In this document: piece after piece, positions 932 to 64,000 of the stretch | How positions within the stretch are numbered: the first letter of the stretch is position 1 | How the letters are laid out: the number at the start of each line of letters is the position of its first letter | Source: an uncultured Chlamydiae bacterium | Lineage (GTDB): Bacteria > Chlamydiota > Chlamydiia > Chlamydiales > Parachlamydiaceae | DNA: 64,000 nt | NCBI GenBank assembly: GCA_963754655.1 | Contig: CAVWGN010000001.1 | Span: 1,632,001-1,696,000 of the forward strand | Reading direction: 5' to 3' | Made by a program: the position numbers and the translations under genes | The notes under the pieces: model-generated | Databases searched by the model: none | What the model saw: only the letters and a program-made list of their open reading frames with translations | What the model was told of the DNA's origin: nothing

Positions 932-2134
932 TCATTGAATTTTTTGAATGATAAAATCATTAATTTTATTAGAAATCACATGTTGCTTAACTTGTTGAGA
1001 AGTCAAATCTGTAGAAGATAAATCGTGTTCAGTAATAAATGGCTCATGGTGATAAGTCAATGGTTGCGGAACAATAGAACTCACAACAATAGCATCTAAC
1101 GGCTCTTCTAAATGTTGAGGAATCGCTTGATTTAATAAAATAAGCTGAGGCTGATCTAATGGTGTAGGCTGCTTATTTAAAGGAATTTCATTTTCAGCAA
1201 GATCTAACAATTGGGGGGAATGATTTTTTTTAAATTTTTTTAAGGGGCTTTCTTCAACGGAAGAATTTGTTTCGCTTCTCGAATGTTTCTTATTAAATTT
1301 TGAATTCAGTATTTTCCAATGACGTGCACATTGCTCAGATGTTATATCAGAAAACTCCTGCGAAATGAGGGCCCATTGACCTTCTCCAAGGCGGTGAACG
1401 GCTTCTTTTAATTGATTATCTTCCTTGTCTGTCCATTTTTTGTATTTGATAGGTGTTTTTAAAATCCTCTTATACTGATGACGGCAGTGATTCTCGGTTC
1501 TACCCGACATCTCTTTGGCTATCATGGCCCACTTTTGCCCATGTTGATTGACAAGTTTTTTCAATTGCTCATTTTCTTCTTCTGTCCATTTTTCTCGTTT
1601 GATAGTAGGGTCTAAAGTTAGCTTATAGCGTTGCCTACATTGAGTATCCGTTCTACCCGGCATTTTTTTGGCTATCTTTGTCCATTTTTCTCCATGTTGA
1701 GCTACAAGGTTTTTTAATTGCTGATCTTCTTCTTCTGTCCATTTTTCGTGTTTGATAGCGGGTTTTAAAGTGTTCTTATAGCGTTGACGACACTGCCTAT
1801 TTGTTCTACCCGAAATCTCTTTGGCTATCTTTGTCCAATTTTCTCCATGTTGAGTCACAAGGTTTTTTAATTGCTCATCTTCCTCTTCTGTCCATTTTCC
1901 ATGCTTAATCGCAGGGTTCAATACACTTATCCAATGATCCATGCATTGTTGATCAGTTATACCAGGCATCTTCTCTGCAACTCTCTTCCAGTTCTCTCCA
2001 AATTCTTTTATATAATTGCTTAATTGCGTATTTTCAGCATCAGTCCATTTTTTCTTGGATTTTTCTACAGGATTTACTTCAATAGATGGTACACTGACTT
2101 GTTCAGGATAATGATTTGAAATTCCTATATTCAT
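932..2134 (-). CDS. Myb/SANT-repeat protein (five ~51-aa Myb repeats), candidate nuclear effector
   Basis: Repeated KWTEEED..L..LV..HG.KW..IA..M.GRT..QCR.RY pattern with Myb Trp spacing; low-complexity C-terminal tail with SPLKKFKK. Confidence 0.9.
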   Translation of the reverse strand: MNIGISNHYPEQVSVPSIEVNPVEKSKKKWTDAENTQLSNYIKEFGENWKRVAEKMPGITDQQCMDHWISVLNPAIKHGKWTEEEDEQLKNLVTQHGENWTKIAKEISGRTNRQCRQRYKNTLKPAIKHEKWTEEEDQQLKNLVAQHGEKWTKIAKKMPGRTDTQCRQRYKLTLDPTIKREKWTEEENEQLKKLVNQHGQKWAMIAKEMSGRTENHCRHQYKRILKTPIKYKKWTDKEDNQLKEAVHRLGEGQWALISQEFSDITSEQCARHWKILNSKFNKKHSRSETNSSVEESPLKKFKKNHSPQLLDLAENEIPLNKQPTPLDQPQLILLNQAIPQHLEEPLDAIVVSSIVPQPLTYHHEPFITEHDLSSTDLTSQQVKQHVISNKINDFIIQKIQ

Positions 2135-4881: not shown

Positions 4882-6090
4882 CTATAACTTATGGACAAAT
4901 ATACCATTCATTACTTCTTGCTTCATCGATACATTGCTAATAGACTTTTGGCCTATCCCACAAGAGGAATCTCCACAAGCGTAAATTCCCGTGGAACTCA
5001 CGGTACTCAATTTTAATAAATTTTTGGCTGCATTAATGTCTCTATCGTGTTGTGTACTGCAACGTTGACAGACCCATTCCCTGATGTTCAGCGGCATTTG
5101 GATGGCTTTATGCTGACAATGAGAACAGATTTTTGAAGAAGAATAATACCTTGGCGCTCTTATTAGCTTCGAGCCATACCATTCTGTCTTATAGGCAAGC
5201 ATGCGTATAAATCCGCTCCATCCTGCATCGGCAATCCCTCTACTCAACCTATTCTTTTGCTGCAAAGTTTGTACATCCAAATCTTCAACAACAATAATTG
5301 ACTTGGTTTTCGCCAATCTTGTTGATAATTTATGATGGAAATCAGTGCGTTGATTGCCGATTTTTCGATGCTGTCTGGCTAACAAAAGAGATGATTTCTT
5401 ATAATTACTAGAACCCTTTTGTTTGCGACTTTGTTTTTTATTTAACACTCTTATCTTTTTAAGCGATTTATTTAAAGGCTTTGGTGAAATAGTTTTTTCA
5501 CCTTCTGAAGTTGTAACAAAAGAGGTTAGCCCGACATCAATGCCAATCGCTGGTCCTTCAACTGGCTGAGAATTTTCTATTTCACACTCTACCGTTACAC
5601 TAACATACCACCGATCTGCTTGACGAGAAACTGTAGCTGAAAGAATTCTTCCTCGTACTTCTGCACACTCTTTAAGTCGAATGATATCCAAACGAGGTAA
5701 TTGAATGGATTGCTTATTAACTTTAATGGTTCCCGTTAATCGGAAATGATCGTTGATCCCCTTTCTCTTAAATTTTGGGAATCCTCCTTTCTTACCACTC
5801 TTCTGACGGTGGAAAAAATTCTGAAAAGCTCGATCAAGATCTCTCAAAGCCTCTTGGGGCGCACATTTTGACACCTCATACATCCAAGAAAATTGTGACC
5901 CCTTCAAATTATTGAGTAATCGGTGCTGTTCAATAGCGTTAGTAGATATTCCATCTTTTTCATATTTTTCAATTCTTGCAGCAAGCCCCCAGTTATAAGC
6001 AAACCGAGCAGATCCTGCATGCTTGGCTAAGAGGATGCGCTGAGCGATATTCGGCTTTAATTCATATCGGTAAGCTCTTTTAATTAGCAT
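4882..6090 (-). CDS. tnpB: TnpB RNA-guided nuclease (IS607)
   Basis: RuvC motifs GIDVG, VVEDL, HDRDINAA and CSHC/CQRC zinc finger; start MLIKRAYRY overlaps the tnpA stop. Confidence 0.93.
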   Translation of the reverse strand: MLIKRAYRYELKPNIAQRILLAKHAGSARFAYNWGLAARIEKYEKDGISTNAIEQHRLLNNLKGSQFSWMYEVSKCAPQEALRDLDRAFQNFFHRQKSGKKGGFPKFKRKGINDHFRLTGTIKVNKQSIQLPRLDIIRLKECAEVRGRILSATVSRQADRWYVSVTVECEIENSQPVEGPAIGIDVGLTSFVTTSEGEKTISPKPLNKSLKKIRVLNKKQSRKQKGSSNYKKSSLLLARQHRKIGNQRTDFHHKLSTRLAKTKSIIVVEDLDVQTLQQKNRLSRGIADAGWSGFIRMLAYKTEWYGSKLIRAPRYYSSSKICSHCQHKAIQMPLNIREWVCQRCSTQHDRDINAAKNLLKLSTVSSTGIYACGDSSCGIGQKSISNVSMKQEVMNGIFVHKL

Positions 6091-6646
6091 TTTGCATGGT
6101 TTCCAATGCTTTTTTAGCTTTGTTCTTTGCCGATCTTCGTCCGTATAGTCTAGCACAAAAAGAAGTTAACATTTCTATCATATCTTGAACTAAATCATCC
6201 TTTAACTCAGAACCATCTGCAACTATTAATTTTCTTCCTTGTGCAGCTAATGCTGACTCCACATATTCAGCACCAAATCTCATCAATCGATCTCGATGTT
6301 CGACTAAAATAATCCGGATCTTTGGATTGTTCAATAATTTTATTAATTTAGGACGATGGCCATTGAGGCCAGAGCCTATTTCTGTTACTGTGTGAGCCAC
6401 AAGATAGCCTTTTTGATTGGCAAAAGTGACTAGCCGGCTTACTTGCCCGTTAAGATCATTTTTTTGATCGGCTGAGGACACACGTGCATAGATAGCAACA
6501 GCATTTGGCTCAAGCATTTCCTCTTTGATTAGAATTGTTCCTGTTTTTGTTTGCTCGGCAGGAACAGGGAGTTGTCCTGCTTTGAACCAGCGCCAAGCAG
6601 TCCTATAGCTTATGCCTTGTTTTTTTGCCCATTTACTTAGTTTCAT
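6080..6646 (-). CDS. tnpA: IS607 serine recombinase/transposase TnpA
   Basis: N-terminal HTH (MKLSKWAK..GISYRTAWRWF), YARVSS catalytic motif, EHRDRL. Confidence 0.93.
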   Translation of the reverse strand: MKLSKWAKKQGISYRTAWRWFKAGQLPVPAEQTKTGTILIKEEMLEPNAVAIYARVSSADQKNDLNGQVSRLVTFANQKGYLVAHTVTEIGSGLNGHRPKLIKLLNNPKIRIILVEHRDRLMRFGAEYVESALAAQGRKLIVADGSELKDDLVQDMIEMLTSFCARLYGRRSAKNKAKKALETMQNAN

Positions 6647-16537: not shown

Positions 16538-17103
16538 ATGAAACTAAGTAAATGGGCAAAAAAACAAGGCATAAGCTATAGGACTGCTTGGCGCTGGTCA
16601 AAGCAGGACAACTCCCTGTTCCTGCCGAGCAAACAAAAACAGGAACAATTCTAATCAAAGAGGAAATGCTTGAGCCAAATGCTGTTGCTATCTATGCACG
16701 TGTGTCCTCAGCCGATCAAAAAAATGATCTTAACGGGCAAGTAAGCCGGCTAGTCACTTTTGCCAATCAAAAAGGCTATCTTGTGGCTCACACAGTAACA
16801 GAAATAGGCTCTGGCCTCAATGGCCATCGTCCTAAATTAATAAAATTATTGAACAATCCAAAGATCCGGATTATTTTAGTCGAACATCGAGATCGATTGA
16901 TGAGATTTGGTGCTGAATATGTGGAGTCAGCATTAGCTGCACAAGGAAGAAAATTAATAGTTGCAGATGGTTCTGAGTTACAGGATGATTTAGTTCAAGA
17001 TATGATAGAAGTGTTAACTTCTTTTTGTACTAGACTATACGGACGAAGATCGGCAAAGAACAAAGCTAAAAAAGCATTGGAAACCATGCAAAATGCTAAT
17101 TAA
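16538..17103 (+). pseudogene. tnpA: IS607 tnpA, frameshifted
   Basis: 1-bp deletion near 16598 (TGGTCAAA vs TGGTTCAAA in copy 1). Confidence 0.88.
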
Positions 17104-18299
17104 AAGAGCTTACCGATATGAATTAAAGCCGAATATCGCTCAGCGCAACCTCTTAGCCAAGCATGCAGGATCTGCTCGGTTTGCTTATAACTGGGGGCTT
17201 GCTGCAAGAATTGAAAAATATGAAAAAGATGGAATATCTACTAACGCTATTGAACAGCACCGATTACTCAATAGTTTGAAGGGGTCACAATTTTCTTGGA
17301 TATATGAGGTGTCAAAATGTGCGCCCCAAGAGGCTTTGAGATCTTGATCGAGCTTTTCAGAATTTTTTCCACCGCCAGAAGAGTGGTAAGAAAGGAGGAT
17401 TCCCAAAATTTAAGAGAAAGGGGATCAACGATCATTTCCGATTAACGGGAACCATTAAAGTTAATAAGCAATCCATTCAATTACCTCGTTTGGGTATCAT
17501 TCGACTTAAAGAGTGTGCAGAAGTACGAGGAAGAATTCTTTCAGCTACAGTTTCTCGTCAAGCAGATCGGTGGTATGTTAGTGTAACGGTAGAGTGTGAA
17601 ATAGAAAATTCCCAGCCAGTTGAAGGACCAGCGATTGGCATTGATGTCGGGCTAACCTCTTTTGTTACAACTTCAGAAGGTGAAAAAACTATTTCACCAA
17701 AGCCTTTAAATAAATCGCTTAAAAAGATAAGAGTGTTAAATAAAAAACAAAGTCGCAAACAAAAGGGTTCTAGTAATTATAAGAAATCATCTCTTTTGTT
17801 AGCCAGACAGCATCGAAAAATCGGCAATCAACGCACTGATTTCCATCATAAATTATCAACAAGATTGGCGAAAACCAAGTCAATTATTGTTGTTGAAGAT
17901 TTGGATGTACAAACTTTGCAGCAAAAGAATAGGTTGAGTAGAGGGATTGCCGATGCAGGATGGAGCGGATTTATACGCATGCTTGCTTATAAGACAGAAT
18001 GGTATGGCTCGAAGCTAATAAGAGCGCCAAGGTATTATTCTTCTTCAAAAATCTGTTCTCATTGTCAGCATAAAGCCATCCAAATGCCGCTGAACATCAG
18101 GGAATGGGTCTGTCAACGTTGCAGTACACAACACGATAGAGACATTAATGCAGCCAAAAATTTATTAAAATTGAGTACCGTGAGTTCCACGGGAATTTAC
18201 GCTTGTGGAGATTCCTCTTGTGGGATAGGCCAAAAGTCTATTAGCAATGTATCGATGAAGCAAGAAGTAATGAATGGTATATTTGTCCATAAGTTATAG
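17093..18299 (+). pseudogene. tnpB: IS607 tnpB, frameshifted
   Basis: 2-bp deletion near 17340 (TTGAGATC vs TTGAGAGATC in copy 1). Confidence 0.88.
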
Positions 18300-18782
18300 A
18301 ACGGTGTACGTTGGAAGATTTGAAGAAATGCTTCCTGGTGAACTGTTGCCTGCATTAATTCCTGAGGCTAAAGTTATTATTCTGGTTTCATCTCTCAGAG
18401 CGGGCTTGAAGGAGATTAAGGTCCGGGCTGGACTTAAGTTTCCTATTGGAGTATCTCTCAACATGCTCGGGCTTCTGGGGTATGGAGGGCGGTGGAATGC
18501 AGGAAGCACAAAAAGATGTGGTGGTACTCCTGAAGGGGATGTTGATGCTTTTATTGCTCACTTAATTAAGATAGTGGCCTATAGGCTAATTTTACATTTT
18601 GGCGCGATGGGCAAAATTAGCCAATTTTTAATTTCAAATCATGAAAATATTTTTAATTTGAATTAATTAATTCACACCTGAATTTTTTTTATTATAATTT
18701 AAAGATTTATATATGGAAAATGATTAATTTGTTATAGTATTATTCAACAATATCAGAAAAAATTATAAAAAAGAGTTTTATT

Positions 18783-20627
18783 ATGCATCCCAATTTTGCT
18801 ATTAATTTGCCATCATTTAATTTCAATACTGCTGAAGGTTCTCAATTTTCTGAGCCTCCTACAAAAAGACAAAAAACACATCATGATGAATCAGAAAAAT
18901 CTTATCAAGAATTGATTCCTGAGATATTAGCAAGTAATAAACTTCTATTAGAAGAATTACAAACCATTCGGCAGCAACAAACGAAAATGGAAGAGCGATT
19001 TGTTCAATTGGAATCCTCACAAAAGGAGATGCTTGATAAAATCTTCCAAATACAAACAAAAATTTTTAATTCCTCTCCCTCTTCTCTTCAACACCCCTTA
19101 GCTCTTTCTAACGGAATGCAAGATCTCATAGCTATCAGCCGTTATGCCGACACTTTACGCCAGCAAGGAAAACTCGAAGAAGCTGTGGCTGAATTTAAAA
19201 AAGCTTTAGCTTTACCTCAAGGACAGCAAGATCTTTTTACTGTCAGCCGTTATGCCGCAACTTTACTCTTGCAAGGAAAACTCGAAGAAGCTGTGGCTGA
19301 ATTTAAAAAAGCTTTAGCTTTACCTCAAGGACAGCAAAATCTTTTTACTGTCAGCCGTTATGCCGCAACTTTAGGCGGGCAAGGAAAACTAGAAGAAGCT
19401 GCCGCTGAATTTAAAAAAGCCTTAGCTCTACCTAAAGGACAGCAAGACCTTTTTACTGTCAGCCGTTATGCCGAAATTTTACGCTTGCAAGGAAAACTAG
19501 AAGAAGCTGCCGCTGAATTTAAAAAAGCCTTAGCTCTACCTCAAGGACAGCAAGACCTTTTTACTGTCAGGTTTTATGCCGAAACTTTACGCTTGCAAGG
19601 AAAACTCGAAGAAGCTGCCGCTGAATTTAAAAAAGCCTTAGCTCTACCTCAAGGACAGCAAGATTTTTATACTGTCAGCCGTTATGCCGAAATTTTACGC
19701 TTGCAAGAAAAACTCGAAGAAGCTGCCGCTGAATTTAAAAAAGCCTTAGCTCTACCTCAAGGACAGCAAAATCTTTTTACTGTCAGCGGTTATGCCCAAA
19801 CTTTACTCTTGCAAGGAAAACTCGAAGAAGCTGCCGCTGAATTTAAAAAAGCCTTAGCTCTACCTAAAGGACAGCAAGATTTTTATACTGTCAGCCGTTA
19901 TGCCGCAACTTTAGCCCGGCAAAGAAAACTCGAAGAAGCTGCCGCTGAATTTAAAAAAGCCTTAGCTCTACCTCAAGGACAGCAAGATCTTTATACTATC
20001 AGCCGTTATGCCACAACTTTATTCTTGCAAGGAAAACTCGAAGAAGCTGCCGCTGAATTTAAAAAAGTTTTAGCTCTACCTCAAGGACAGCAAAATCTTT
20101 TTACTGTCAGCCGTTATGCCGCAACTTTACGCGAGCAAGGAAAACTCGAAGAAGCTGCCGCTGAATTTAAAAAAGCCTTAGCTCTACCTCAAGGACAGCA
20201 AAATCTTTTTACTGTCAGCGGTTATGCCGCAACTTTACGCTTGCAAGGAAAACTCGAAGAAGCTGCCGCTGAATTTAAAAAAGCCTTAGCTCTACCTAAA
20301 GGACAGCAAGACCTTTTTACTGTCAGCCGTTATGCCGAAACTTTACGCGAGCAAGGAAAAATCGAAGAAGCTGCCGCTGAATTTAAAAAAGCTTTAGCTC
20401 TACCTCAAGGACAGCAAAATCTTTTTACTGTCAGCCGTTATGCCCAAACTTTACGCTTGCAAGGAAAACTCGAAGAAGCTGCCGCTGAATTTAAAAAAGC
20501 CTTAGCTCTACCTAAAGGACAGCAAGATCTTTTTACTGTCAGCGGTTATGCCGAAACTTTACGCGAGCAAGGAAAACTCGAAGAAGCTGCACCACTTAAT
20601 TTAATGGCACTTAATTTACAAAATTAG
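18783..20627 (+). CDS. 36-aa TPR/PPR-like tandem repeat protein, paralogue 1 (13.5 repeats), NLS-like motif
   Basis: 108-bp repeats from 19122; consensus DLFTVSRYAxTLxxQGKLEEAAAEFKKALALPQGQQ; N-terminal EPPTKRQKT and coiled coil. Confidence 0.9.
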   Translation: MHPNFAINLPSFNFNTAEGSQFSEPPTKRQKTHHDESEKSYQELIPEILASNKLLLEELQTIRQQQTKMEERFVQLESSQKEMLDKIFQIQTKIFNSSPSSLQHPLALSNGMQDLIAISRYADTLRQQGKLEEAVAEFKKALALPQGQQDLFTVSRYAATLLLQGKLEEAVAEFKKALALPQGQQNLFTVSRYAATLGGQGKLEEAAAEFKKALALPKGQQDLFTVSRYAEILRLQGKLEEAAAEFKKALALPQGQQDLFTVRFYAETLRLQGKLEEAAAEFKKALALPQGQQDFYTVSRYAEILRLQEKLEEAAAEFKKALALPQGQQNLFTVSGYAQTLLLQGKLEEAAAEFKKALALPKGQQDFYTVSRYAATLARQRKLEEAAAEFKKALALPQGQQDLYTISRYATTLFLQGKLEEAAAEFKKVLALPQGQQNLFTVSRYAATLREQGKLEEAAAEFKKALALPQGQQNLFTVSGYAATLRLQGKLEEAAAEFKKALALPKGQQDLFTVSRYAETLREQGKIEEAAAEFKKALALPQGQQNLFTVSRYAQTLRLQGKLEEAAAEFKKALALPKGQQDLFTVSGYAETLREQGKLEEAAPLNLMALNLQN

Positions 20628-21285: not shown

Positions 21286-21633
21286 TTAACTGAGAGTTTG
21301 AGAATGAAGATAGTCTTCTATTCCCTTAACCAACTTATCTAAGGCTAATAAGTACTGTTTGCATTCTCGATATTGATTTTCACTTATACTAGACTGAGAT
21401 CGCAATGTACTTAAACTTTCAAAAAGAGGATCCAAAGAAAATCGTTTCACTTGAACTGACCGACCCTTGATTAAAGTCGCAGCTAAACCTGCGTAATAGC
21501 TATCAGTTTCATTTAGGTCAGCAGTCCAATTTGTTAGAGCTTCTTCTTGACCATTAAGATGTGGAAAAGGCAATAAAAGAAACTGTTCATACAATTGCTT
21601 AAGCATTAATTGATTCATCATTTTTAACCCCAA
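21286..21633 (-). CDS. Small protein, candidate immunity protein
   Basis: Coupled to upstream toxin-like ORF; LPFP...ADL...YYAGLA pattern; true start may be the MM at 21621. Confidence 0.55.
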   Translation of the reverse strand: MGLKMMNQLMLKQLYEQFLLLPFPHLNGQEEALTNWTADLNETDSYYAGLAATLIKGRSVQVKRFSLDPLFESLSTLRSQSSISENQYRECKQYLLALDKLVKGIEDYLHSQTLS

Positions 21634-22037
21634 AAGGTAACGATTTTTCCATTTTTATCCCATGTTCCACCCTCATTCCCTTTTTTAATCTTATAGCCCT
21701 GAGAGCCATCTTTTAAAATGAAGGGCTGCCTTAAATTCTTATTTTTTTTATAAAAATTCACTGCATCTCGCGTGTATTGCAAGGATGTACGGCCATTTCC
21801 ATGTTTCTTTGTATGGTAGTCAATGGAAGCTTGATTAGTAGGAAAAGTCGACTTATACCAAAATTTTTGATAATTTTTTTGAGAGACAGAAGGAGAATGT
21901 TGTTGATGGGTATTTTTTTTAAAGTGTTGATGGGTATTTTTTTTAAAGTTTTGAGTTTGTTTTGCAATTAACTCAGTCGAAGGAGTAATGAATAACATGA
22001 CCGAAAGAAGAAATCCAAAAATAAATTTTAAATGCAT
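21624..22037 (-). CDS. Small secreted basic protein with polymorphic-toxin-like C-terminal domain
   Basis: Signal peptide; STFP...SIDYHTKKHG...GGTWDKNGKIVTFW. Confidence 0.55.
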   Translation of the reverse strand: MHLKFIFGFLLSVMLFITPSTELIAKQTQNFKKNTHQHFKKNTHQQHSPSVSQKNYQKFWYKSTFPTNQASIDYHTKKHGNGRTSLQYTRDAVNFYKKNKNLRQPFILKDGSQGYKIKKGNEGGTWDKNGKIVTFWG

Positions 22038-32791: not shown

Positions 32792-33518
32792 AGTACTCAA
32801 CCACATTAGTTTTGTGTATTTAGACTGCTTCAAAGCCCCCGCGGTTGAATTGGCGTAAGTGGTTCAATATTAGTAATATGGACCCAGTTACGCCAATTCA
32901 ACCCGGGGCTAGGGTGTTCATTTTGTGCAAAAAATGAGCTTTATTTTTTACAATAATTGGCATAGTTAAATTGAAAGTCGTATGTTTATGCCGTCCTTTC
33001 AGGACTCGATGTCTTTTTGATAGAACCCAGGCCTCCGCTTCGCTGCGACCTGGGCTGTAACATGACGGCCCTTCAGGCCTTAACAAAAAGATGATTTAGG
33101 GACTATAGAAGAGGGACTTAAACATCTCTTGTTAAGCCTGAAGGGCCGGCCCTTTAAGCCTTAACAAAAGGACTATTTATGGACTATAGAAGAGGGACTT
33201 AAACATCTCTTGTTAAGCCTTAAAGGGCCGGCCCTTTAAGCCTTAACAAAAGGACTATTTATGGACTATAGAAGAGGGACTTAAATCTCTTTTGTTAAGG
33301 CCTGAAGGGCCGTCATGTTACAGCCCAGGTCGCAGCGAAGCGGAGGCCTGGGTTCTATCAAAAAGACATCGAGTCCTGAAAGGACGGCATAAACATGCGA
33401 CCTTCAATTTAATTATGCCAATTATTGTGAAAAATAAAGCTCATTTTTTGCACAAAATGAACACCCACCCCGGGGCTTTAAAGAGTCTAAATACACAAAA
33501 CTAATGTGGTTGAGTACT
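32792..33518. repeat. Large nested palindromic element B with three central ~82-bp tandem units
   Basis: Outer arms 32792-32840/33470-33518, inner arms ~32912-33089/33291-33466, extra hairpin 32843-32903, tandem units 33067-33147, 33148-33229, 33230-33311. Confidence 0.92.
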
Positions 33519-36997: not shown

Positions 36998-38977
36998 ATG
37001 CAATTTATACTCGTTAATTCACAAGTAATGCAAAACACTTCAAATGAGGTTTTTTTAAATAACATCTTTCCTGACGAAATTTTAGAAATTTTTTTTGATC
37101 AGGTGGTCAATCAAAAAAGGCCACTTTTAGGTGATATTTCTTCTATTTTACTCACTTGTAAGAGATGGAAAGAAGTTTTTGAGAAGAATCCTTGCATTTC
37201 ATTAGTGCAAACCCTTTTTCAACTTACAAAGAGTCCTCAGTCGTTTACTCATTCTTTCCGAGAATGTATCGCAATTGAACAAAAGAAGTCTTTTACCTCT
37301 CAGGAACTTAAATTGATCGATCGAGTCCGACAAGACTGTGTAGGAAGTTTTAGAAAGTTATTAATGGTTAAATCAGATTTGTTTTGCGCTAATAGTTTAT
37401 TTCGTTCTCTTTTAAATCACTGTTTATGGGATCCTCAATTTTGCAAAAACAGCGCCAATCAAAACATCCGACAAGTGGCTGAAGGACAATTGTCTATTTT
37501 AAACTCTCTTGCATGGGGCACTGAGGATCAAAGATTAATGGTGATCGAAAATGATTTTATCGCAAAACTTTACCTGGGGGGTCGAGATCAAGTTTGGCAG
37601 CGGGCAAAAGAATCGGTCATTTCCACACTTAAAAAATTTCCCTGTTTTAACGATAAAAAAAGAATGATGCAAGTTGCTCGCTGTTTTGGACAATCTGTTT
37701 TTGATATAGATGCAAGCCTTAAAAAAGATCGAGAAATTGTCTTGGCTGCCGTTCAGCAAAATGGCTACGCTCTTCAATATGTAGATGATAGTCTTAAAAA
37801 AGATCGAGAAATTGTCTTGTTTGCTGTTCAGCAAAATGGCGAGGCTCTTCGATATGCAGATGAAAGCCTTAAAAAAGATCGAGAAATTGTCTTGGCTGCT
37901 GTTCAGCAAAATGGCTATAGTCTTCTATATGCAGATGAAAGCTTTAAAAAAGATCGAGAAATTGTCTTGGCGGCCATTCAAAAAAATGGCGGAGTTTTTC
38001 AATTTGCAGACGAAAGCTTTAAAAAAGATGGAGAGATTATCTTGGCGGCCATTCAGAAAGATAGCTTAGTTCTTCAATATGCAGATGAAAACTTTAAAAA
38101 AAATCGAGAAATTGTCTTGATTGCTGTTAAGCAAAATGGCGGGGCTCTTCAATATGCAGATGAAAGTCTTAAAAAAGATCAAGAGATTGTCTTAGCGGCC
38201 GTTAAAGAAAATGGCTTAGCTCTTCAAGATGCAGATGATAGCCTTAAAAAAGATCGAGAAATTGTCTTGGCTGCTGTTCAGCAAAATGGCGGGGCTCTTC
38301 AATATGCAGATGAAAGTCTTAAAAAAGATCGAGAGATTGTCTTAGCTGCTGTTAATGAAAATGGCCGGGCTCTTCAATATGCAGATGAAAGCCTTAAGAA
38401 AGATCGGGACATTTTCTTGGCTGCCATTCAGCAAGATGGCTGGGTTCTTCAATATGCAGATGAAAACTTTAAAAAAGATCGAGAGATTGTCTTGATTTCC
38501 ATTCAGCAAGATGCCAACACTCTTGCAATAGCAGACACAAGCCTTAAACAAGATCGAGAGATTGTCTTGGCTGCTGTTCAACAAGATGGTCGGGCTCTTC
38601 AATATGCAGATGAAAGCTTTAAAAAAGATCGAGAGATTGTCTTGGCTGCTATTCAGCAAGATGGCGGAGCTCTTCAATATGCAGATGAAGACTTTAAAAA
38701 AGATCAAAAAGTTGTCTTGGCTGCTATTCAGCAAGATGGCTGCGCTCTTGAATATGCAGATGAAGGCTTTAAAAAAGATCGAGAAATCGTCTTGGCTGCT
38801 GTTCAGCAAAATGGCTGGGCTCTTGAATATGCAGATGAAAGCTTTAAAAAAGATCGAGAGATTGTCTTGGCTGCCGTTAGTCAAGAGGGCCAGGCTCTTT
38901 GCTTTGCAGATGAAAGCCTTAAAAAAGATCGAGAGATTGTCTGGGCTGCTGTTTTCAGCAAAATGGCTGGGCTCTAG
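36998..38977 (+). CDS. F-box-like protein with 16+ 25-aa DUF4116-type repeats
   Basis: N-terminal FPDEILEIF...ILLTCKRWKEV; 75-bp repeats SLKKDREIVLAAVQQNGxALQYADE from 37715. Confidence 0.85.
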   Translation: MQFILVNSQVMQNTSNEVFLNNIFPDEILEIFFDQVVNQKRPLLGDISSILLTCKRWKEVFEKNPCISLVQTLFQLTKSPQSFTHSFRECIAIEQKKSFTSQELKLIDRVRQDCVGSFRKLLMVKSDLFCANSLFRSLLNHCLWDPQFCKNSANQNIRQVAEGQLSILNSLAWGTEDQRLMVIENDFIAKLYLGGRDQVWQRAKESVISTLKKFPCFNDKKRMMQVARCFGQSVFDIDASLKKDREIVLAAVQQNGYALQYVDDSLKKDREIVLFAVQQNGEALRYADESLKKDREIVLAAVQQNGYSLLYADESFKKDREIVLAAIQKNGGVFQFADESFKKDGEIILAAIQKDSLVLQYADENFKKNREIVLIAVKQNGGALQYADESLKKDQEIVLAAVKENGLALQDADDSLKKDREIVLAAVQQNGGALQYADESLKKDREIVLAAVNENGRALQYADESLKKDRDIFLAAIQQDGWVLQYADENFKKDREIVLISIQQDANTLAIADTSLKQDREIVLAAVQQDGRALQYADESFKKDREIVLAAIQQDGGALQYADEDFKKDQKVVLAAIQQDGCALEYADEGFKKDREIVLAAVQQNGWALEYADESFKKDREIVLAAVSQEGQALCFADESLKKDREIVWAAVFSKMAGL

Positions 38978-47633: not shown

Positions 47634-49574
47634 TTAACTTTTTAGATTAATAAGCTCCATTAAATTAAGCGCTGGAATTAAACTTTCGTGATAGTGGCTA
47701 ATAACAAAAGGATCTTCCTGTCCTTGAGGGAGAGCTAAAGCTTTTTTAAATTCAGCTGCAGCTTCTTGGAGTTTTCCTTGCTGATGTAAAGTTTCAGCAT
47801 AATGGCTAACAGTGAAAAGGTTTTGCTGTCCTTGAGGGAGAGCTAAAGCTTTTTTAAATTCAGCTGCTGCTTCCTCGAATTTTCCTTGCTGACGTAAAGT
47901 TTCGGCATAACTGCTAACAGTTAAAAGGTTTTGCTGTCCTTGAGGGAAAGCTAAAGCTTTTTTAAATTCAGCTGCCGCTTCCTCGAGTTTTCCTTGCTGA
48001 CGTAAAGTTTCGGCATAACGGCTAACAGTTAAAAGGTTTTGCTGTCCTTGAGGGAGAGCTAAAGCTTTTTTAAATTCAGCTGCAGCTTCCTCGAGTTTTC
48101 CTTGCTGACGTAAAGTTTCGGCATAAGTGCTGACAGCGGAAAGGTTTTGCTGTCCTTGAGGGAAAGCTAAAACTTTTTTAAATTCAGCTGTCGCTTCCTC
48201 GAGTTTTCCTTGCTGACGTAAAGTTTCGGCATAACGGCTGACAGTGAAAAGGCTTTGCTGTCCTTGAGGCAGAGCTAAAGCTTTTTTTAATTCAGCTGCA
48301 GCTTCCTCGAATTTTCCTTGCTCACGTAAAGTTTCGGCATAATGGCTAACAGTGAAAAGGTCTTGCTGTCCTTGAGGGAAAGCTAAAGCTTTTTTAAATT
48401 CAGCGGCAGCTTCCTCGAATTTTCCTTGTTGACGTAAAGTTTCAGCATAACAGTTGACAGTGGAAAATTTTTGCTGTCCTTGATGAGGGAGAGCTAAAGC
48501 TTTTTTAAATTCAGCTGCAGCTTCCTCGATTTTTCCTTGCTGACGTAAAGTTTCGGCATAATGGCTAACAGTGAAAAGGTCTTGCTGTCCTTGAGGGAGA
48601 GCTAAAGCTTTTTTTAATTCAGCTGTAGCTTCCTGGAGTTTTCCTTGATAGCGTAAAGTTGCGGCATAATGGCTAACAGTAAAAAGACTTTGCTGTCCTT
48701 GAGGGAGAGCTAAAGCTTTTTTAAATTCAGCTGCAGCTTCCTCGAATTTTTTTTGCTGACGTAAAGTTTCGGCATAACGGCTAACAGTGAAAAGGTTTTG
48801 CTGTCCTTGAGGGAGAGCTAAAGCTTTGTTAAATTCAGCTGCAGCTTCCTCGAATTTTCCTTGCTGACGTAAAGTTTCGGCATAACCGTTAACAGCGAAA
48901 AGGTCTTGCTGTCCTTGAGGGAGAGCTAAAGCTTTTTTAAATTCAGCCGCAGCTTCCTCGAATTTTCCTTGCTGACGTAAAGTTTCGGCATAACCGCTAA
49001 CAGCGAAAAGGTCTTGCTGTCCTTGAGGGAAAGCTAAAACTTTTTTAAATTCAGCTGTCGCTTCCTCGAATTTTCCTTGCTGACGTAAAGTTTCGGCATA
49101 ACGGCTAACAGTTAAAAGGTTTTGCTGTCCTTGAGGGAGAGCTAAAGCTTTTTTAAATTCAGCTGCAGCTTCCTCGAGCTTTCCTTGCTGACGTAAAGTT
49201 TCGGCATAAGTGCTGACAGCGATAAGATCTTGCTGTCTATCAAAAAGAGCTAACGGATTTTGAGCAGAAGAGGAAGAAGGATTCAAATTAAAAGGTTGTG
49301 TTTGCATTTGGAAGATTTTATCAACCATTTCTTTTTGTGTAGACTCTAATTTAATAAAGCGCTCTTCTATTTTATTTTGTTGATGCTGAATGGCTTGTAG
49401 TTGCTCTTGTAGAAGCTTATTGCTTTTTAATATCTCAGACATGAAAAACTCTTGAGAAAATCCATCTGTTTGATGATTTGTTTTTTGTCTTTTTGCAGGA
49501 CGCTCAGGAGATTGAGAATCTTCAGAATTATCTAAAGGGAATGAGGTAGAATTAACAAAAAAACTAGAATTCAT
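47634..49574 (-). CDS. 36-aa TPR/PPR-like tandem repeat protein, paralogue 2 (14 repeats plus cap), NLS-like motif
   Basis: 108-bp repeats 47715-49229 (one with a 3-bp insertion); N-terminal ERPAKRQKT, homologous to 18783-20627. Confidence 0.9.
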   Translation of the reverse strand: MNSSFFVNSTSFPLDNSEDSQSPERPAKRQKTNHQTDGFSQEFFMSEILKSNKLLQEQLQAIQHQQNKIEERFIKLESTQKEMVDKIFQMQTQPFNLNPSSSSAQNPLALFDRQQDLIAVSTYAETLRQQGKLEEAAAEFKKALALPQGQQNLLTVSRYAETLRQQGKFEEATAEFKKVLAFPQGQQDLFAVSGYAETLRQQGKFEEAAAEFKKALALPQGQQDLFAVNGYAETLRQQGKFEEAAAEFNKALALPQGQQNLFTVSRYAETLRQQKKFEEAAAEFKKALALPQGQQSLFTVSHYAATLRYQGKLQEATAELKKALALPQGQQDLFTVSHYAETLRQQGKIEEAAAEFKKALALPHQGQQKFSTVNCYAETLRQQGKFEEAAAEFKKALAFPQGQQDLFTVSHYAETLREQGKFEEAAAELKKALALPQGQQSLFTVSRYAETLRQQGKLEEATAEFKKVLAFPQGQQNLSAVSTYAETLRQQGKLEEAAAEFKKALALPQGQQNLLTVSRYAETLRQQGKLEEAAAEFKKALAFPQGQQNLLTVSSYAETLRQQGKFEEAAAEFKKALALPQGQQNLFTVSHYAETLHQQGKLQEAAAEFKKALALPQGQEDPFVISHYHESLIPALNLMELINLKS

Positions 49575-62985: not shown

Positions 62986-64000
62986 CTAACTTTGCAAATT
63001 AAGCGCTATTAAATTAAGTGCTGCCGCCTCTTCGAGTTTTCCTTGCTGGCGTAAAGTGTCGGCATAACGGCTGACAGTAAAAAGATCTTGCTGTCCTTGA
63101 GGGAGAGCTAGGGCTTTTTTAAATTCAGCTGCAGCTTCCTCAAGTTTTCCTTGCCGGCGTAAAATTGCGGCATAACTGCTGAGAGTAAAAAGATCTTGCT
63201 GTCCTTTAGGTAGAGCTAAGGCTTTTTTAAATTCAGCTGCAGCTTCCTCGAGTTTTCCTTGCTGGCATAAAGTTGCGGCATAAAAGCTGGCAGTAAAAAG
63301 ATCTTGCTGTCCTAGAGGTAGAGCTAAGGCTTTTTTAAATTCAGCCACAGCTTCCCCGAATTTTCCTTGCTGGCATAAAGTTGCGGCATAACGGCTGACA
63401 GTAAAAAGATCTTGCTGTCCTTGAGGTAGAACTAAAGCTTTTTTAAATTCAGCTACAGCTTCTTCGAGTTTTCCTTGCTGGCGTAAAGTGTCGGCATAAA
63501 ACCTGACAGTAAAAAGATCTTGCTGTCCTAGAGGTAGAGCTAAGGCTTTCTTTAATTCAGCTGCAGCTTCTTCGAGTTTTCCTTGCTGGCGTAAAGTGTC
63601 GGCATAAAAGCTGACAGTAAAAACATTTTGCTGTCCTAGAGGTAGAGCTAAGGCTTTTTTAAATTCAGCTGCAGCTTCCTCGAATTTTCCTTGCCGGCAT
63701 AAAGTTGCGGCATAAAAGCTGACAGTAAAAAGATCTTGCTGTCCTAGAGGTAGAGCTAAGGCTTTTTTAAATTCAGCTACAGCTTCTTCGAGTTTTCCTT
63801 GCCGGCGTAAAATTGCGGCATAACGGCTGACAGTAAAAAGATCTTGCTGTCCTAGAGGTAGAGCTAAGGCTTTTTTAAATTCAGCCGCAGCTTCTTCCAG
63901 TTTTCCTTGCTGACGTAAAGTGTTGGCATAACGGCTGACAGCTACGAGGTCTTGCCTTCCATTAGAAAGAGCTAAGGGTTGTTGAATAGAAGAGGAAGAG
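62986..64000 (-). CDS. 36-aa TPR/PPR-like tandem repeat protein, paralogue 3 (8.5 repeats; 5' end outside window)
   Basis: Frame is open from 63999 (SSSSIQQPLALSNGRQDLVAVSRYANTLRQ...) to the stop at 62986; the ORF track shows only the last 120 aa. Confidence 0.88.
   Translation of the reverse strand, partial: SSSSIQQPLALSNGRQDLVAVSRYANTLRQQGKLEEAAAEFKKALALPLGQQDLFTVSRYAAILRRQGKLEEAVAEFKKALALPLGQQDLFTVSFYAATLCRQGKFEEAAAEFKKALALPLGQQNVFTVSFYADTLRQQGKLEEAAAELKKALALPLGQQDLFTVRFYADTLRQQGKLEEAVAEFKKALVLPQGQQDLFTVSRYAATLCQQGKFGEAVAEFKKALALPLGQQDLFTASFYAATLCQQGKLEEAAAEFKKALALPKGQQDLFTLSSYAAILRRQGKLEEAAAEFKKALALPQGQQDLFTVSRYADTLRQQGKLEEAAALNLIALNLQS

Follow-up and report, generated by a model that had tools for sequence, protein, structure and literature searches.

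Among fungal NOD-like receptors (NLRs), highly internally conserved TPR, ANK and WD repeats have been described (Dyrka et al. 2014, PMC4986451), NB-ARC-TPR genes have been reported from Ectocarpus (Zambounis et al. 2012, PMC3341825), and within the Parachlamydiaceae two sets of genes containing tetratricopeptide repeats (TPRs), NEX2 (F-box plus TPR) and PEX2 (TPR plus CHAT), have undergone expansion (Domman et al. 2014, PMC4209131). The main text of the last of these papers mentions neither a basic motif nor site-restricted variation, and the word 'nuclear' occurs in it 0 times. Here we describe a family of TPR genes in an uncultured Chlamydiae bacterium of the Parachlamydiaceae (GenBank assembly GCA_963754655.1; 3.16 Mb in two contigs, 38.8% G+C), three members of which lie in a stretch of 64,000 nucleotides that we analysed as a whole and refer to as the window (G000:C1:1632001-1696000). 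Each gene encodes 8 to about 20 highly similar 36-residue repeats behind a disordered, Ser/Asn/Phe-rich N-terminus, and the amino-acid differences between repeats concentrate on the stripe of helix A that forms the ligand face of known TPRs. Our favoured reading, to which we give an even chance, is that these are translocated, probably nuclear, binders of host peptides or proteins made by an amoeba-type chlamydia.

A reading of the letters alone, made before our analysis (the sequence-only reading), had recognised three paralogues with 13.5, 14 and 8.5 repeats and no catalytic domain, and both statements hold: Tandem Repeats Finder returns 13.8, 14.1 and 8.5 copies, corresponding to 13, 14 and 8 full repeats, and Pfam searches with the three window proteins retrieve TPR-type families only and no catalytic domain. 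Since a genome search added two paralogues (A and B) to these three, the family has five members and not three. The elements of the family are as follows (positions are those of the window, except where prefixed by C1, which denotes the genomic contig):

18783-20627, plus strand: paralogue 1 (P1), an open reading frame (ORF) of 614 amino acids, in which a disordered N-terminus leads into the basic motif and the long helix, then 13 full and 1 partial repeats and a short C-terminal tail.
18855-18884, plus strand: P1 basic motif, residues 25-34 (PPTKRQKTHH), resembling a nuclear localisation signal (NLS), from the five-paralogue alignment.
18900-19067, plus strand: P1 long predicted helix, residues 40-95, possibly a coiled coil, of low confidence (DSSP assignment; predicted local distance difference test, pLDDT, 43-65 for the block).
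19096-20590, plus strand: P1 108-bp array as delimited by Tandem Repeats Finder, 13.8 copies, 91% matches.
19122-20525, plus strand: P1 full repeats, 13 TPRs of 108 bp (36 amino acids), with helix A in columns 2-14 and helix B in columns 18-30.
47634-49574, minus strand: paralogue 2 (P2), an ORF of 646 amino acids with P1-like architecture, 14 full and 1 partial repeats.
47715-49229, minus strand: P2 array (Tandem Repeats Finder, 47706-49237, 14.1 copies, 90% matches).
49473-49502, minus strand: P2 basic motif, residues 25-34 (RPAKRQKTNH), from the alignment and a motif search.
62986-64000, minus strand: 3' part of paralogue 3 (P3), its ORF open at the window end, 8 full and 1 partial repeats.
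63088-63951, minus strand: P3 array (Tandem Repeats Finder, 63020-63941, 8.5 copies, 90% matches).
C1:1100650-1103007, minus strand, and C1:1103478-1105739, plus strand: paralogues A and B, a divergent pair with ~20 and ~19 more diverged repeats.

In the genome P3 extends past the window to C1:1696293, and its protein starts with MHPGLSINLPSF. The 35 full repeats of the window genes (13 + 14 + 8) were parsed and the three partial terminal repeats excluded from all counts; repeat 7 of P2 has a one-residue insertion that shifts the register and leaves one odd residue in each of columns 33-35. Beyond the array the tail measures ~11 residues and lacks an acidic domain, while ~100 nucleotides 5' of the start codons are conserved in all five paralogues.

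All three window proteins score far above the Pfam cut-offs for TPR families, with 136.7 (P1), 160.6 (P2) and 118.0 bits (P3) against TPR_11 (cut-off 26.8) and 113.8, 137.8 and 95.3 bits against TPR_2 (cut-off 27). Their period of 108 bp, or 36 amino acids, exceeds the canonical TPR length of 34 by two extra residues in the inter-repeat loop (columns 33-36), and because Pfam itself has TPR models of 42-44 positions, we regard it as a variant in length that does not exclude the repeats from the TPRs. The small residues of TPR positions 8, 20 and 27 are present as A9 (35/35 repeats), A21 (35/35) and A28 (32/35), and the large hydrophobic residues of positions 4, 7, 11 and 24 as V5 (31/35), Y8 (35/35), L12 (35/35) and F25 (32/35). 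An AlphaFold model of P1, for which the five paralogues and the metagenomic relative P0001 (see below) formed the alignment, reached a mean pLDDT of 84 (>90 in the repeats), left residues 1-39 disordered and predicted antiparallel helix pairs arranged in a right-handed superhelix. Ranking this model against known structures with Foldseek and VIA placed TPR superhelices first, among them those of OGT (1w3b, 6eou; Z 29.8, root-mean-square deviation [rmsd] 3.2 Å over 342 and 4.6 Å over 388 residues) and of consensus TPR designs (CTPRs; 8chy, 9qhb; Z ~25, rmsd 2.3-2.9 Å over 272 residues), with BBS4, LGN and PilF also high. On the predicted model and the family scores, the fold class of the repeats is TPR.

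To place the variation on this fold, we set the register by the TPR_2 alignment (protein residues 119-144 to model positions 5-30), in which column n is TPR position n-1, so that columns 3, 7, 10, 13 and 14 are TPR positions 2, 6, 9, 12 and 13. Among the 35 repeats, column 7 has the highest entropy (2.24 bits), followed by columns 14 (1.93), 10 (1.86), 3 (1.60), 13 (1.44) and 1 (1.37), which had all been named in the sequence-only reading; column 6, named there as well, was overstated (S in 31/35 repeats, 0.63 bits), and columns 33 (Q/K/L, 1.32 bits), 18 (L/F/I, 1.11) and 22 (A/V/T, 0.99) had escaped it. Helix B varies little except at columns 18 and 22, in keeping with the quiet second helix described earlier. 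The pattern recurs in the older paralogues A and B, whose entropy profile over the 36 columns correlates with that of the window genes (Spearman 0.70; 37 of 38 repeats, one out-of-register repeat being dropped). Judged from the helix start in the AlphaFold model, column 1 caps helix A at its N-terminal end, where D, N and S can replace one another. Plotted on a helical wheel, columns 3, 7, 10, 13 and 14, which are variable, fall within a single arc of 220-340 degrees, and the invariant or near-invariant columns 5, 8, 9 and 12 lie opposite at 80-180 degrees, which would place the variable sites on one surface; this mapping rests on the TPR register and helical periodicity. In TPRs at large the most variable positions are 2, 5, 9, 12, 13, 33 and 34, all on the concave face, and the peptide ligands of HOP are contacted by positions 2, 5, 6, 9, 12 and 13 (both from the relevant part of Magliery & Regan 2005, PMC1261162). 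Register, entropies and published contact positions therefore agree with the earlier assignment of the variation to the concave face of TPR helix A, and the concentration of amino-acid differences on a helix A stripe equivalent to the concave ligand face of known TPRs is well supported at the sequence level. Counting K/R versus D/E on that face gives 20 versus 7 of 78 residues in P1, 12 versus 2 of 48 in P3 and 17 versus 14 in P2: the face of P1 and P3 is net basic, that of P2 is not.

The arrays themselves are young or homogenised. Nucleotide identity of the repeats is 0.89-0.91 within and 0.84-0.88 between arrays, amino-acid identity within arrays is 81-83% (in P1, 91% at the nucleotide and 83% at the amino-acid level), and synonymous codons are gene-specific, as in column 19, which is GAA in 13/13 repeats of P1 and GAG in 12/14 of P2. 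Because identity is higher within genes and synonymous codons differ by gene, the arrays have undergone either concerted evolution or separate recent expansions. The N-termini of P1 and P3 are 83% identical, yet the genes have 13 and 8 full repeats; repeat number therefore shifts quickly. The codons at the variable columns follow the fixed-third-base pattern that had been noted for P1, where column 13 reads CGC (8), CTC (2), GGC, GCC and TTC (1 each) and column 14 TTG (8), GAG (2), CAG, CGG and GGG (1 each). Over all 35 repeats, column 7 uses seven codons, every one ending in T, and column 10 uses six, neither column having any synonymous variants.

We next compared non-synonymous with synonymous change. 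Pairwise Nei-Gojobori ratios of non-synonymous to synonymous rates (dN/dS) within genes are 2.32 (P1), 1.20 (P2) and 1.12 (P3) for the six variable columns and 0.46-0.56 elsewhere, with whole-repeat values of 1.00, 0.75 and 0.67. Codon site models (a home-made GY94 implementation using F3x4 frequencies, a single scale for the branches and an iqtree topology kept fixed) favour M2a over M1a with 2dlnL of 36.4 for P1, 21.9 for P2 and 5.8 for P3 (p = 0.056); for the 35 repeats together it is 36.95, with an omega2 of 3.9 on 18% of sites and posteriors >0.9 at columns 3, 7, 13, 14 and 18. Null data simulated on the P1 tree gave 2dlnL <=0.2 in 7/7 runs without recombination; in 6 runs where recombination was made extreme by permuting the tips separately for each column, it stayed <=6.9. 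A site-wise alpha/beta test singles out column 14 (p = 0.0007) and column 7 (p = 0.009), with column 10 at p = 0.06, and a tree-free minimum-change count in P1 finds 3 columns with >=4 non-synonymous changes versus 0.29 expected (P = 0.003). Non-synonymous change thus exceeds synonymous change at part of the face, and positive selection is likely at columns 7 and 14 and probably also at columns 10 and 13.

The same variation could also be neutral, with expanded arrays homogenised and the helix A surface simply tolerant of substitution, without adaptive diversification; this alternative concerns the selection claim only, and any localisation of the proteins fits it. Several results pull in its direction and away from selection. 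TPRs in general vary most at these very positions (PMC1261162, in the part cited above), the profile of paralogues A and B is similar, and when the three genes are mixed the pairwise dN/dS for the variable columns comes to only 0.54, a value that is low because between-gene synonymous differences enter the pool and mask the within-array signal. The tree-free test is non-significant in P2, in P3 and in all 35 repeats; the site-wise test finds synonymous rates that are also high at columns 1, 3 and 13, which show no non-synonymous excess; and the codon models ignore multi-nucleotide changes. Against neutrality stand the whole-repeat dN/dS of 1.00 in P1 despite 30 constrained columns at 0.50, the preference for M2a far past the simulated nulls, and the lack of synonymous variants among the seven codons of column 7 and the six of column 10. 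On balance we regard a purely neutral origin as rather unlikely, and the evidence for selection as real but mixed. The diversifying, shufflable repertoire of the sequence-only reading accordingly survives in part: repeats are gained and lost and dN/dS is raised within genes at the variable columns (1.12-2.32), but the elevation vanishes in the pooled comparison and the tree-free test supports it in P1 alone.

The favoured reading also draws on the N-terminus. In the five-paralogue alignment P26, K28, R29, Q30, K31 and H34 are invariant (5/5) amid a diverging, disordered segment (pLDDT <50), and all five genes, the three of the window and the two distal ones, have a P-x-KRQK motif. This bears out one half of the earlier claim of such a motif before a coiled coil; the helix that follows is of low confidence, has sub-threshold coiled-coil Pfam matches only, and, long in the three window genes, is mostly missing from the two distal ones. 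A complex prediction with two copies of residues 36-100 scored 0.02, which is uninformative either way on oligomerisation. KRQK, lying in a disordered segment, conforms to the core K-K/R-x-K/R of a classical monopartite NLS, and it may resemble the signals of c-Myc and NF-kB p50. An extended form, P.K[KR].K.[HN]H, occurs in 14/2007 crude ORFs versus 0.0 in 20 shuffles, and these 14 are the five TPR genes and nine Myb-repeat genes, which carry EERPLKKFKKNH; the metagenomic relative P0001 has K28 K29 Q30 K31 at the same place, and a second TPR family of ten genes has the similar motif PPRKRIKQE at residue ~29. Myb arrays are eukaryote-type DNA binders. That the TPR family has the extended motif in common with these DNA-binding genes is the best indirect support for a nuclear-import signal, a role of the basic motif that we also favour because a similar motif recurs in the second TPR family. 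The N-terminal 85-120 residues of the five paralogues match nothing in Pfam above cut-off, NACHT, NB-ARC, F-box and CHAT included; a stretch in P1 and P3, ELIPEIL, looked F-box-like and was rejected on the lack of any Pfam match above cut-off.

The two families that share the tag are arrays in their own right. The nine Myb genes, each with 5-13 tandem Myb repeats, lie at 932-2134 (minus strand) of the window, at C1:1211906-1228922 and at C1:2583469-2584401; their Pfam scores reach 686 bits over 13 stretches, 153-bp DNA repeats occupy 1406-2052 in the copy of the window, and in all nine EERPLKKFKKNH stands after the array. The ten-gene family (C1:2326093-2351354; L100, L101) encodes proteins of 422-854 amino acids with PPRKRIKQE at residue ~29 and near-identical 36-residue repeats of the form VPA.VL..SAFVKKELKQY.EADALYAQAIAKYG.Q, which score as TPR_10/TPR_12; here, too, variation between the repeats of an array is confined to certain sites. 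An F-box-like stretch follows the motif by eye, and Pfam at E <= 1e-5 finds none there.

Under the favoured reading, the type III system encoded by the genome would export the TPR proteins, the basic motif would carry them into the host nucleus, and the long groove would bind extended host peptides or proteins in a scaffold or decoy role, like the groove of the OGT TPRs, with different paralogues and repeat sets giving different specificities. The chlamydial context agrees with export: the window encodes a CPAF-like protease (PDZ_4 plus S41) and a DUF4116 repeat protein, and the genome a type III ATPase of SctN/FliI type (634.2 bits versus a cut-off of 379.5), the one component of the system for which we searched. 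Neither a signal peptide nor a transmembrane segment is visible in the N-termini of the TPR paralogues. Secretion and nuclear location are, on these features, plausible.

Two points count against such a fate. The bare core K[KR]x[KR] is weak evidence, occurring in the first 50 residues of 121/2007 crude ORFs and anywhere in 674/2007, and instead of the basic motif the nearest relatives have one transmembrane segment at the N-terminus. These relatives are the metagenomic protein P0121 (ENA), 1250 amino acids long and 48% identical, with a transmembrane helix, ~17 near-identical 34-residue TPRs and a 590-residue C-terminal tail that matches no Pfam family at E <= 1 but may contain a cysteine-protease-like motif, and proteins of a same-genus genome (G002; L095, L098), which are transmembrane-anchored, have 34-residue TPRs with the same YAETLRQ core at 31-38% identity and, by eye, begin alike (MNSI...). 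Since a transmembrane segment stands where our family has the motif, the ancestral form may have been no effector but a bacterial protein anchored in the membrane. P0121 and P0001 (metagenomic, 513 amino acids, 48% identity, 36-residue repeats) are the only two close matches among the 20,563 TPR proteins that the repeat region retrieved at E <= 0.001 from a library of 1.84 billion. Among 40 related genomes the repeats match 2 (29-38% identity), and the N-terminus matches 1 at noise level (E = 0.0068, with an in-frame stop). A search with the N-terminus of 5.8 billion word-indexed proteins gave 145 candidates of lengths 337-1075 only, none at E <= 0.001, and an ESM Atlas feature search with it gave no usable match. 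Scans of genome-contig and metagenome-contig collections returned 55 loci, all generic TPR (best long match 37%), and 14 loci at <=36% identity, respectively, and the open-access literature searched held no paper on this family or its motif. In relatives, then, the repeat module is paired with front ends of other kinds, and among the genomes searched the form with the basic motif is confined to this one.

A second alternative, that the proteins are scaffolds or adaptors inside the bacterium that are never exported, their basic motif serving contact with nucleic acid, membrane or a partner, has in its favour that TPR proteins are common bacterial housekeeping adaptors and that the closest relatives are membrane-anchored. 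It sits poorly, however, with a family limited to this genome among those searched, with multiple copies, fast evolution and binding-face diversity of a kind typical of host-directed proteins, and with a motif held in common with genes for a eukaryote-type DNA-binding domain, and we judge it unlikely.

Last among the alternatives is the modular code at the centre of the sequence-only reading, in which each repeat reads one nucleotide, in the manner of pentatricopeptide repeats (PPRs) or TAL effectors, or one residue of another polymer, and the variable residues are the code. Its best evidence is a phmmer alignment of ten repeats in a single stretch to the designed PPR protein dPPR-U8A2 (5i9d) at E = 1.1e-13, identical to the E value for the OGT TPRs, in which columns 1, 3 and 6 correspond to PPR residues 35, 2 and 5. 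The earlier alignment to these three code residues is thereby reproduced, and in that register P1 has S+D or S+N at 11/12 repeat junctions; the match itself arises because the helix-B motif GKL[DE]EA..F is common to both proteins. Columns 13-14 of P1 also behave as a variable di-residue (RL 5, LL 2, RE 2 and four singletons), and in P1 and P3 basic residues outnumber acidic ones on the concave face. But the main code position, column 6, is S in 31/35 repeats, column 1 is a helix N-cap, the period is 36 and not 35, and the face of P2 is not basic. The five-residue sets at columns 3, 7, 10, 13 and 14 are distinct in 13/13 repeats of P1, 11/14 of P2 and 7/8 of P3, so nearly every repeat has a set of its own and there is no small alphabet. 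The comparison of TPR and PPR hidden Markov models (HMMs) goes the same way: when the genome was searched with PF13041 (PPR_2) and PF01535 (PPR) at E up to 10, with 150/171 and 150/184 candidates scored, none of the five TPR genes, of which the three in the window are far above the TPR cut-offs, was among the 149 matches listed for PPR_2 or the 149 for PPR. With a two-repeat piece, PPR families were not among the 25 best Pfam families listed (the 25th at E = 0.11), and the TAL model was absent from those 25 as well, which is not decisive by itself. In structure the predicted P1 model, which fits TPRs at 2.3-4.6 Å, superposes on the designed PPR-RNA complexes 6een with Z 20.2 and rmsd 10.2 Å over 315 residues and 5i9f with Z 20.1 and 16.7 Å over 387; these rank 43 and 47 in the list that TPR superhelices head. 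With PPR models failing, column 6 near-fixed, a predicted superhelix that fits TPR and true PPR arrays already present elsewhere in the genome, we consider a one-unit-per-repeat code in this family highly improbable.

The PPR genes of this genome are an observation in themselves. About eleven true PPR proteins are encoded outside the window, at C1:2737287-2771816, C1:1739493-1741496 and C1:2586974-2588806; at least 149 genomic PPR_2 matches are listed, mostly of 45-70 bits and with 105-nt spacing, and 0/14 control genomes exceed the cut-off. One of these proteins (L093) scores 781 bits over 18 stretches, and in most the C-terminus is a conserved tail, LITGKGLHS, for which Smr is the best Pfam match but stays below cut-off (19.5 versus 25.7 bits). 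Bacteria seldom have PPR arrays, and if a modular RNA code is sought here, the cluster is a more promising candidate than the TPR family.

A broader and much bolder proposal would see in the TPR family a natural counterpart of designed repeat-binder libraries, its scaffold kept constant by concerted evolution while the groove residues are reshuffled and mutated. One repeat would then bind one unit of an extended host polymer, such as a repetitive nuclear peptide (for example a histone or C-terminal domain [CTD]-like tail) or, less likely, nucleic acid, the order of repeats would spell the specificity, and the Pro-x-Lys-Lys/Arg-x-Lys tag would mark, in an amoeba symbiont, a whole nucleus-directed arsenal made up of the TPR, Myb and F-box-like TPR families. 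We hold this to be very unlikely as a whole.

Besides the genes named above, the window contains an SNF2 helicase gene and IS605/IS607-type genes. Directly upstream of P1, at 16588-18299 (plus strand), are a serine-recombinase (resolvase) gene and an IS605-type TnpB gene, and a second TnpB gene is at 4882-6156 (minus strand). Five soil-metagenome DNA runs from two studies contain parts of the locus, and no RNA run is listed as containing it; of four of these DNA runs, which gave short contigs, one covers pieces of the gene and the others only 18300-18620, and no orthologous array or repeat-number variant was found in them. The sharing of the upstream DNA 18300-18620 with other soil-metagenome contigs is as expected for the end of a mobile element. 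The DUF4116 protein is encoded at 36998-38977 (plus strand; 648 bits, 12 stretches) by 75-bp DNA repeats in 16.9 copies, and its N-terminus, FPDEILEIFF...CKRW, is possibly F-box-like. At 33066-33312 an 82-bp unit is repeated 3.0 times (91% matches) without any ORF of >=150 amino acids there. Two overlapping small ORFs at 21286-22037 (minus strand), of 137 amino acids with a hydrophobic N-terminus and then 115 amino acids, have no Pfam match at E <= 1e-8 and could encode a putative secreted protein and its partner.

If the favoured reading is true, an environmental chlamydia sends several expanded repeat families into the host nucleus by means of one short tag, and the TPR groove is diversified on the attacker's side in a way that resembles fungal and algal immune receptors. 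The family would then be a tractable system for arms races between symbionts and protists, it would supply natural, stable, near-consensus TPR scaffolds with known tolerated positions on the binding face, and the motif would offer a simple means of searching Chlamydiota for effectors aimed at the nucleus. If it is not true, what is left is another TPR expansion restricted to one lineage.

Among known structures the family is most like the TPRs of OGT (1w3b, 6eou) and the CTPRs (8chy, 9qhb), its best match in structure and, by sequence, in the PDB (E = 1.1e-13), with which it shares a long uninterrupted superhelix and, in the case of the designed CTPRs, near-consensus repeats. It is unlike them in its 36-residue period with two extra loop residues, its lack of a catalytic domain and its N-terminal basic motif and long helix, and identity to OGT is only ~20-22%. 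With designed PPRs (5i9d, 5i9f, 6een) it has in common helix hairpins of similar length and the GKL[DE]EA..F motif in helix B, but PPR HMMs fail on it, code position 5 is near-fixed and the predicted superhelix misfits by 10-17 Å, whereas a true PPR protein of the same genome scores 781 bits. TAL effectors have repeats of 33-35 residues in which a loop of two residues varies, and they also possess an acidic activation domain and a C-terminal NLS. The likeness to them is in near-identical repeats of ~34 residues, variable residues before the inter-helix turn, a putative NLS and presumed type III delivery; the differences are five or six variable columns instead of two, no small alphabet, a tail of ~11 residues and predicted TPR geometry.

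NEX2 and PEX2, like our family, are lineage-specific, multi-copy TPR proteins of environmental chlamydiae that are presumed to act in the host, and global dN/dS is comparable (0.29-0.63 in PMC4209131, main text, and 0.67-1.00 per gene here). The family described here lacks an F-box, CHAT, OTU or DUF294 domain, and no positive selection was found in the earlier study. To judge from the portions of the fungal and algal studies that bear on repeat arrays (PMC4986451, PMC3341825), the closest known phenomenon is that of conserved TPR arrays of the NLR type: near-identical repeats, concerted evolution, differences in repeat number between copies and variable or selected sites on the concave face are common to both, and the 81-83% identity of our repeats is just below the 85% used to define highly internally conserved repeats in fungi. 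Unlike those arrays, the present family has neither NACHT nor NB-ARC, is bacterial, and probably represents an effector and not a receptor.

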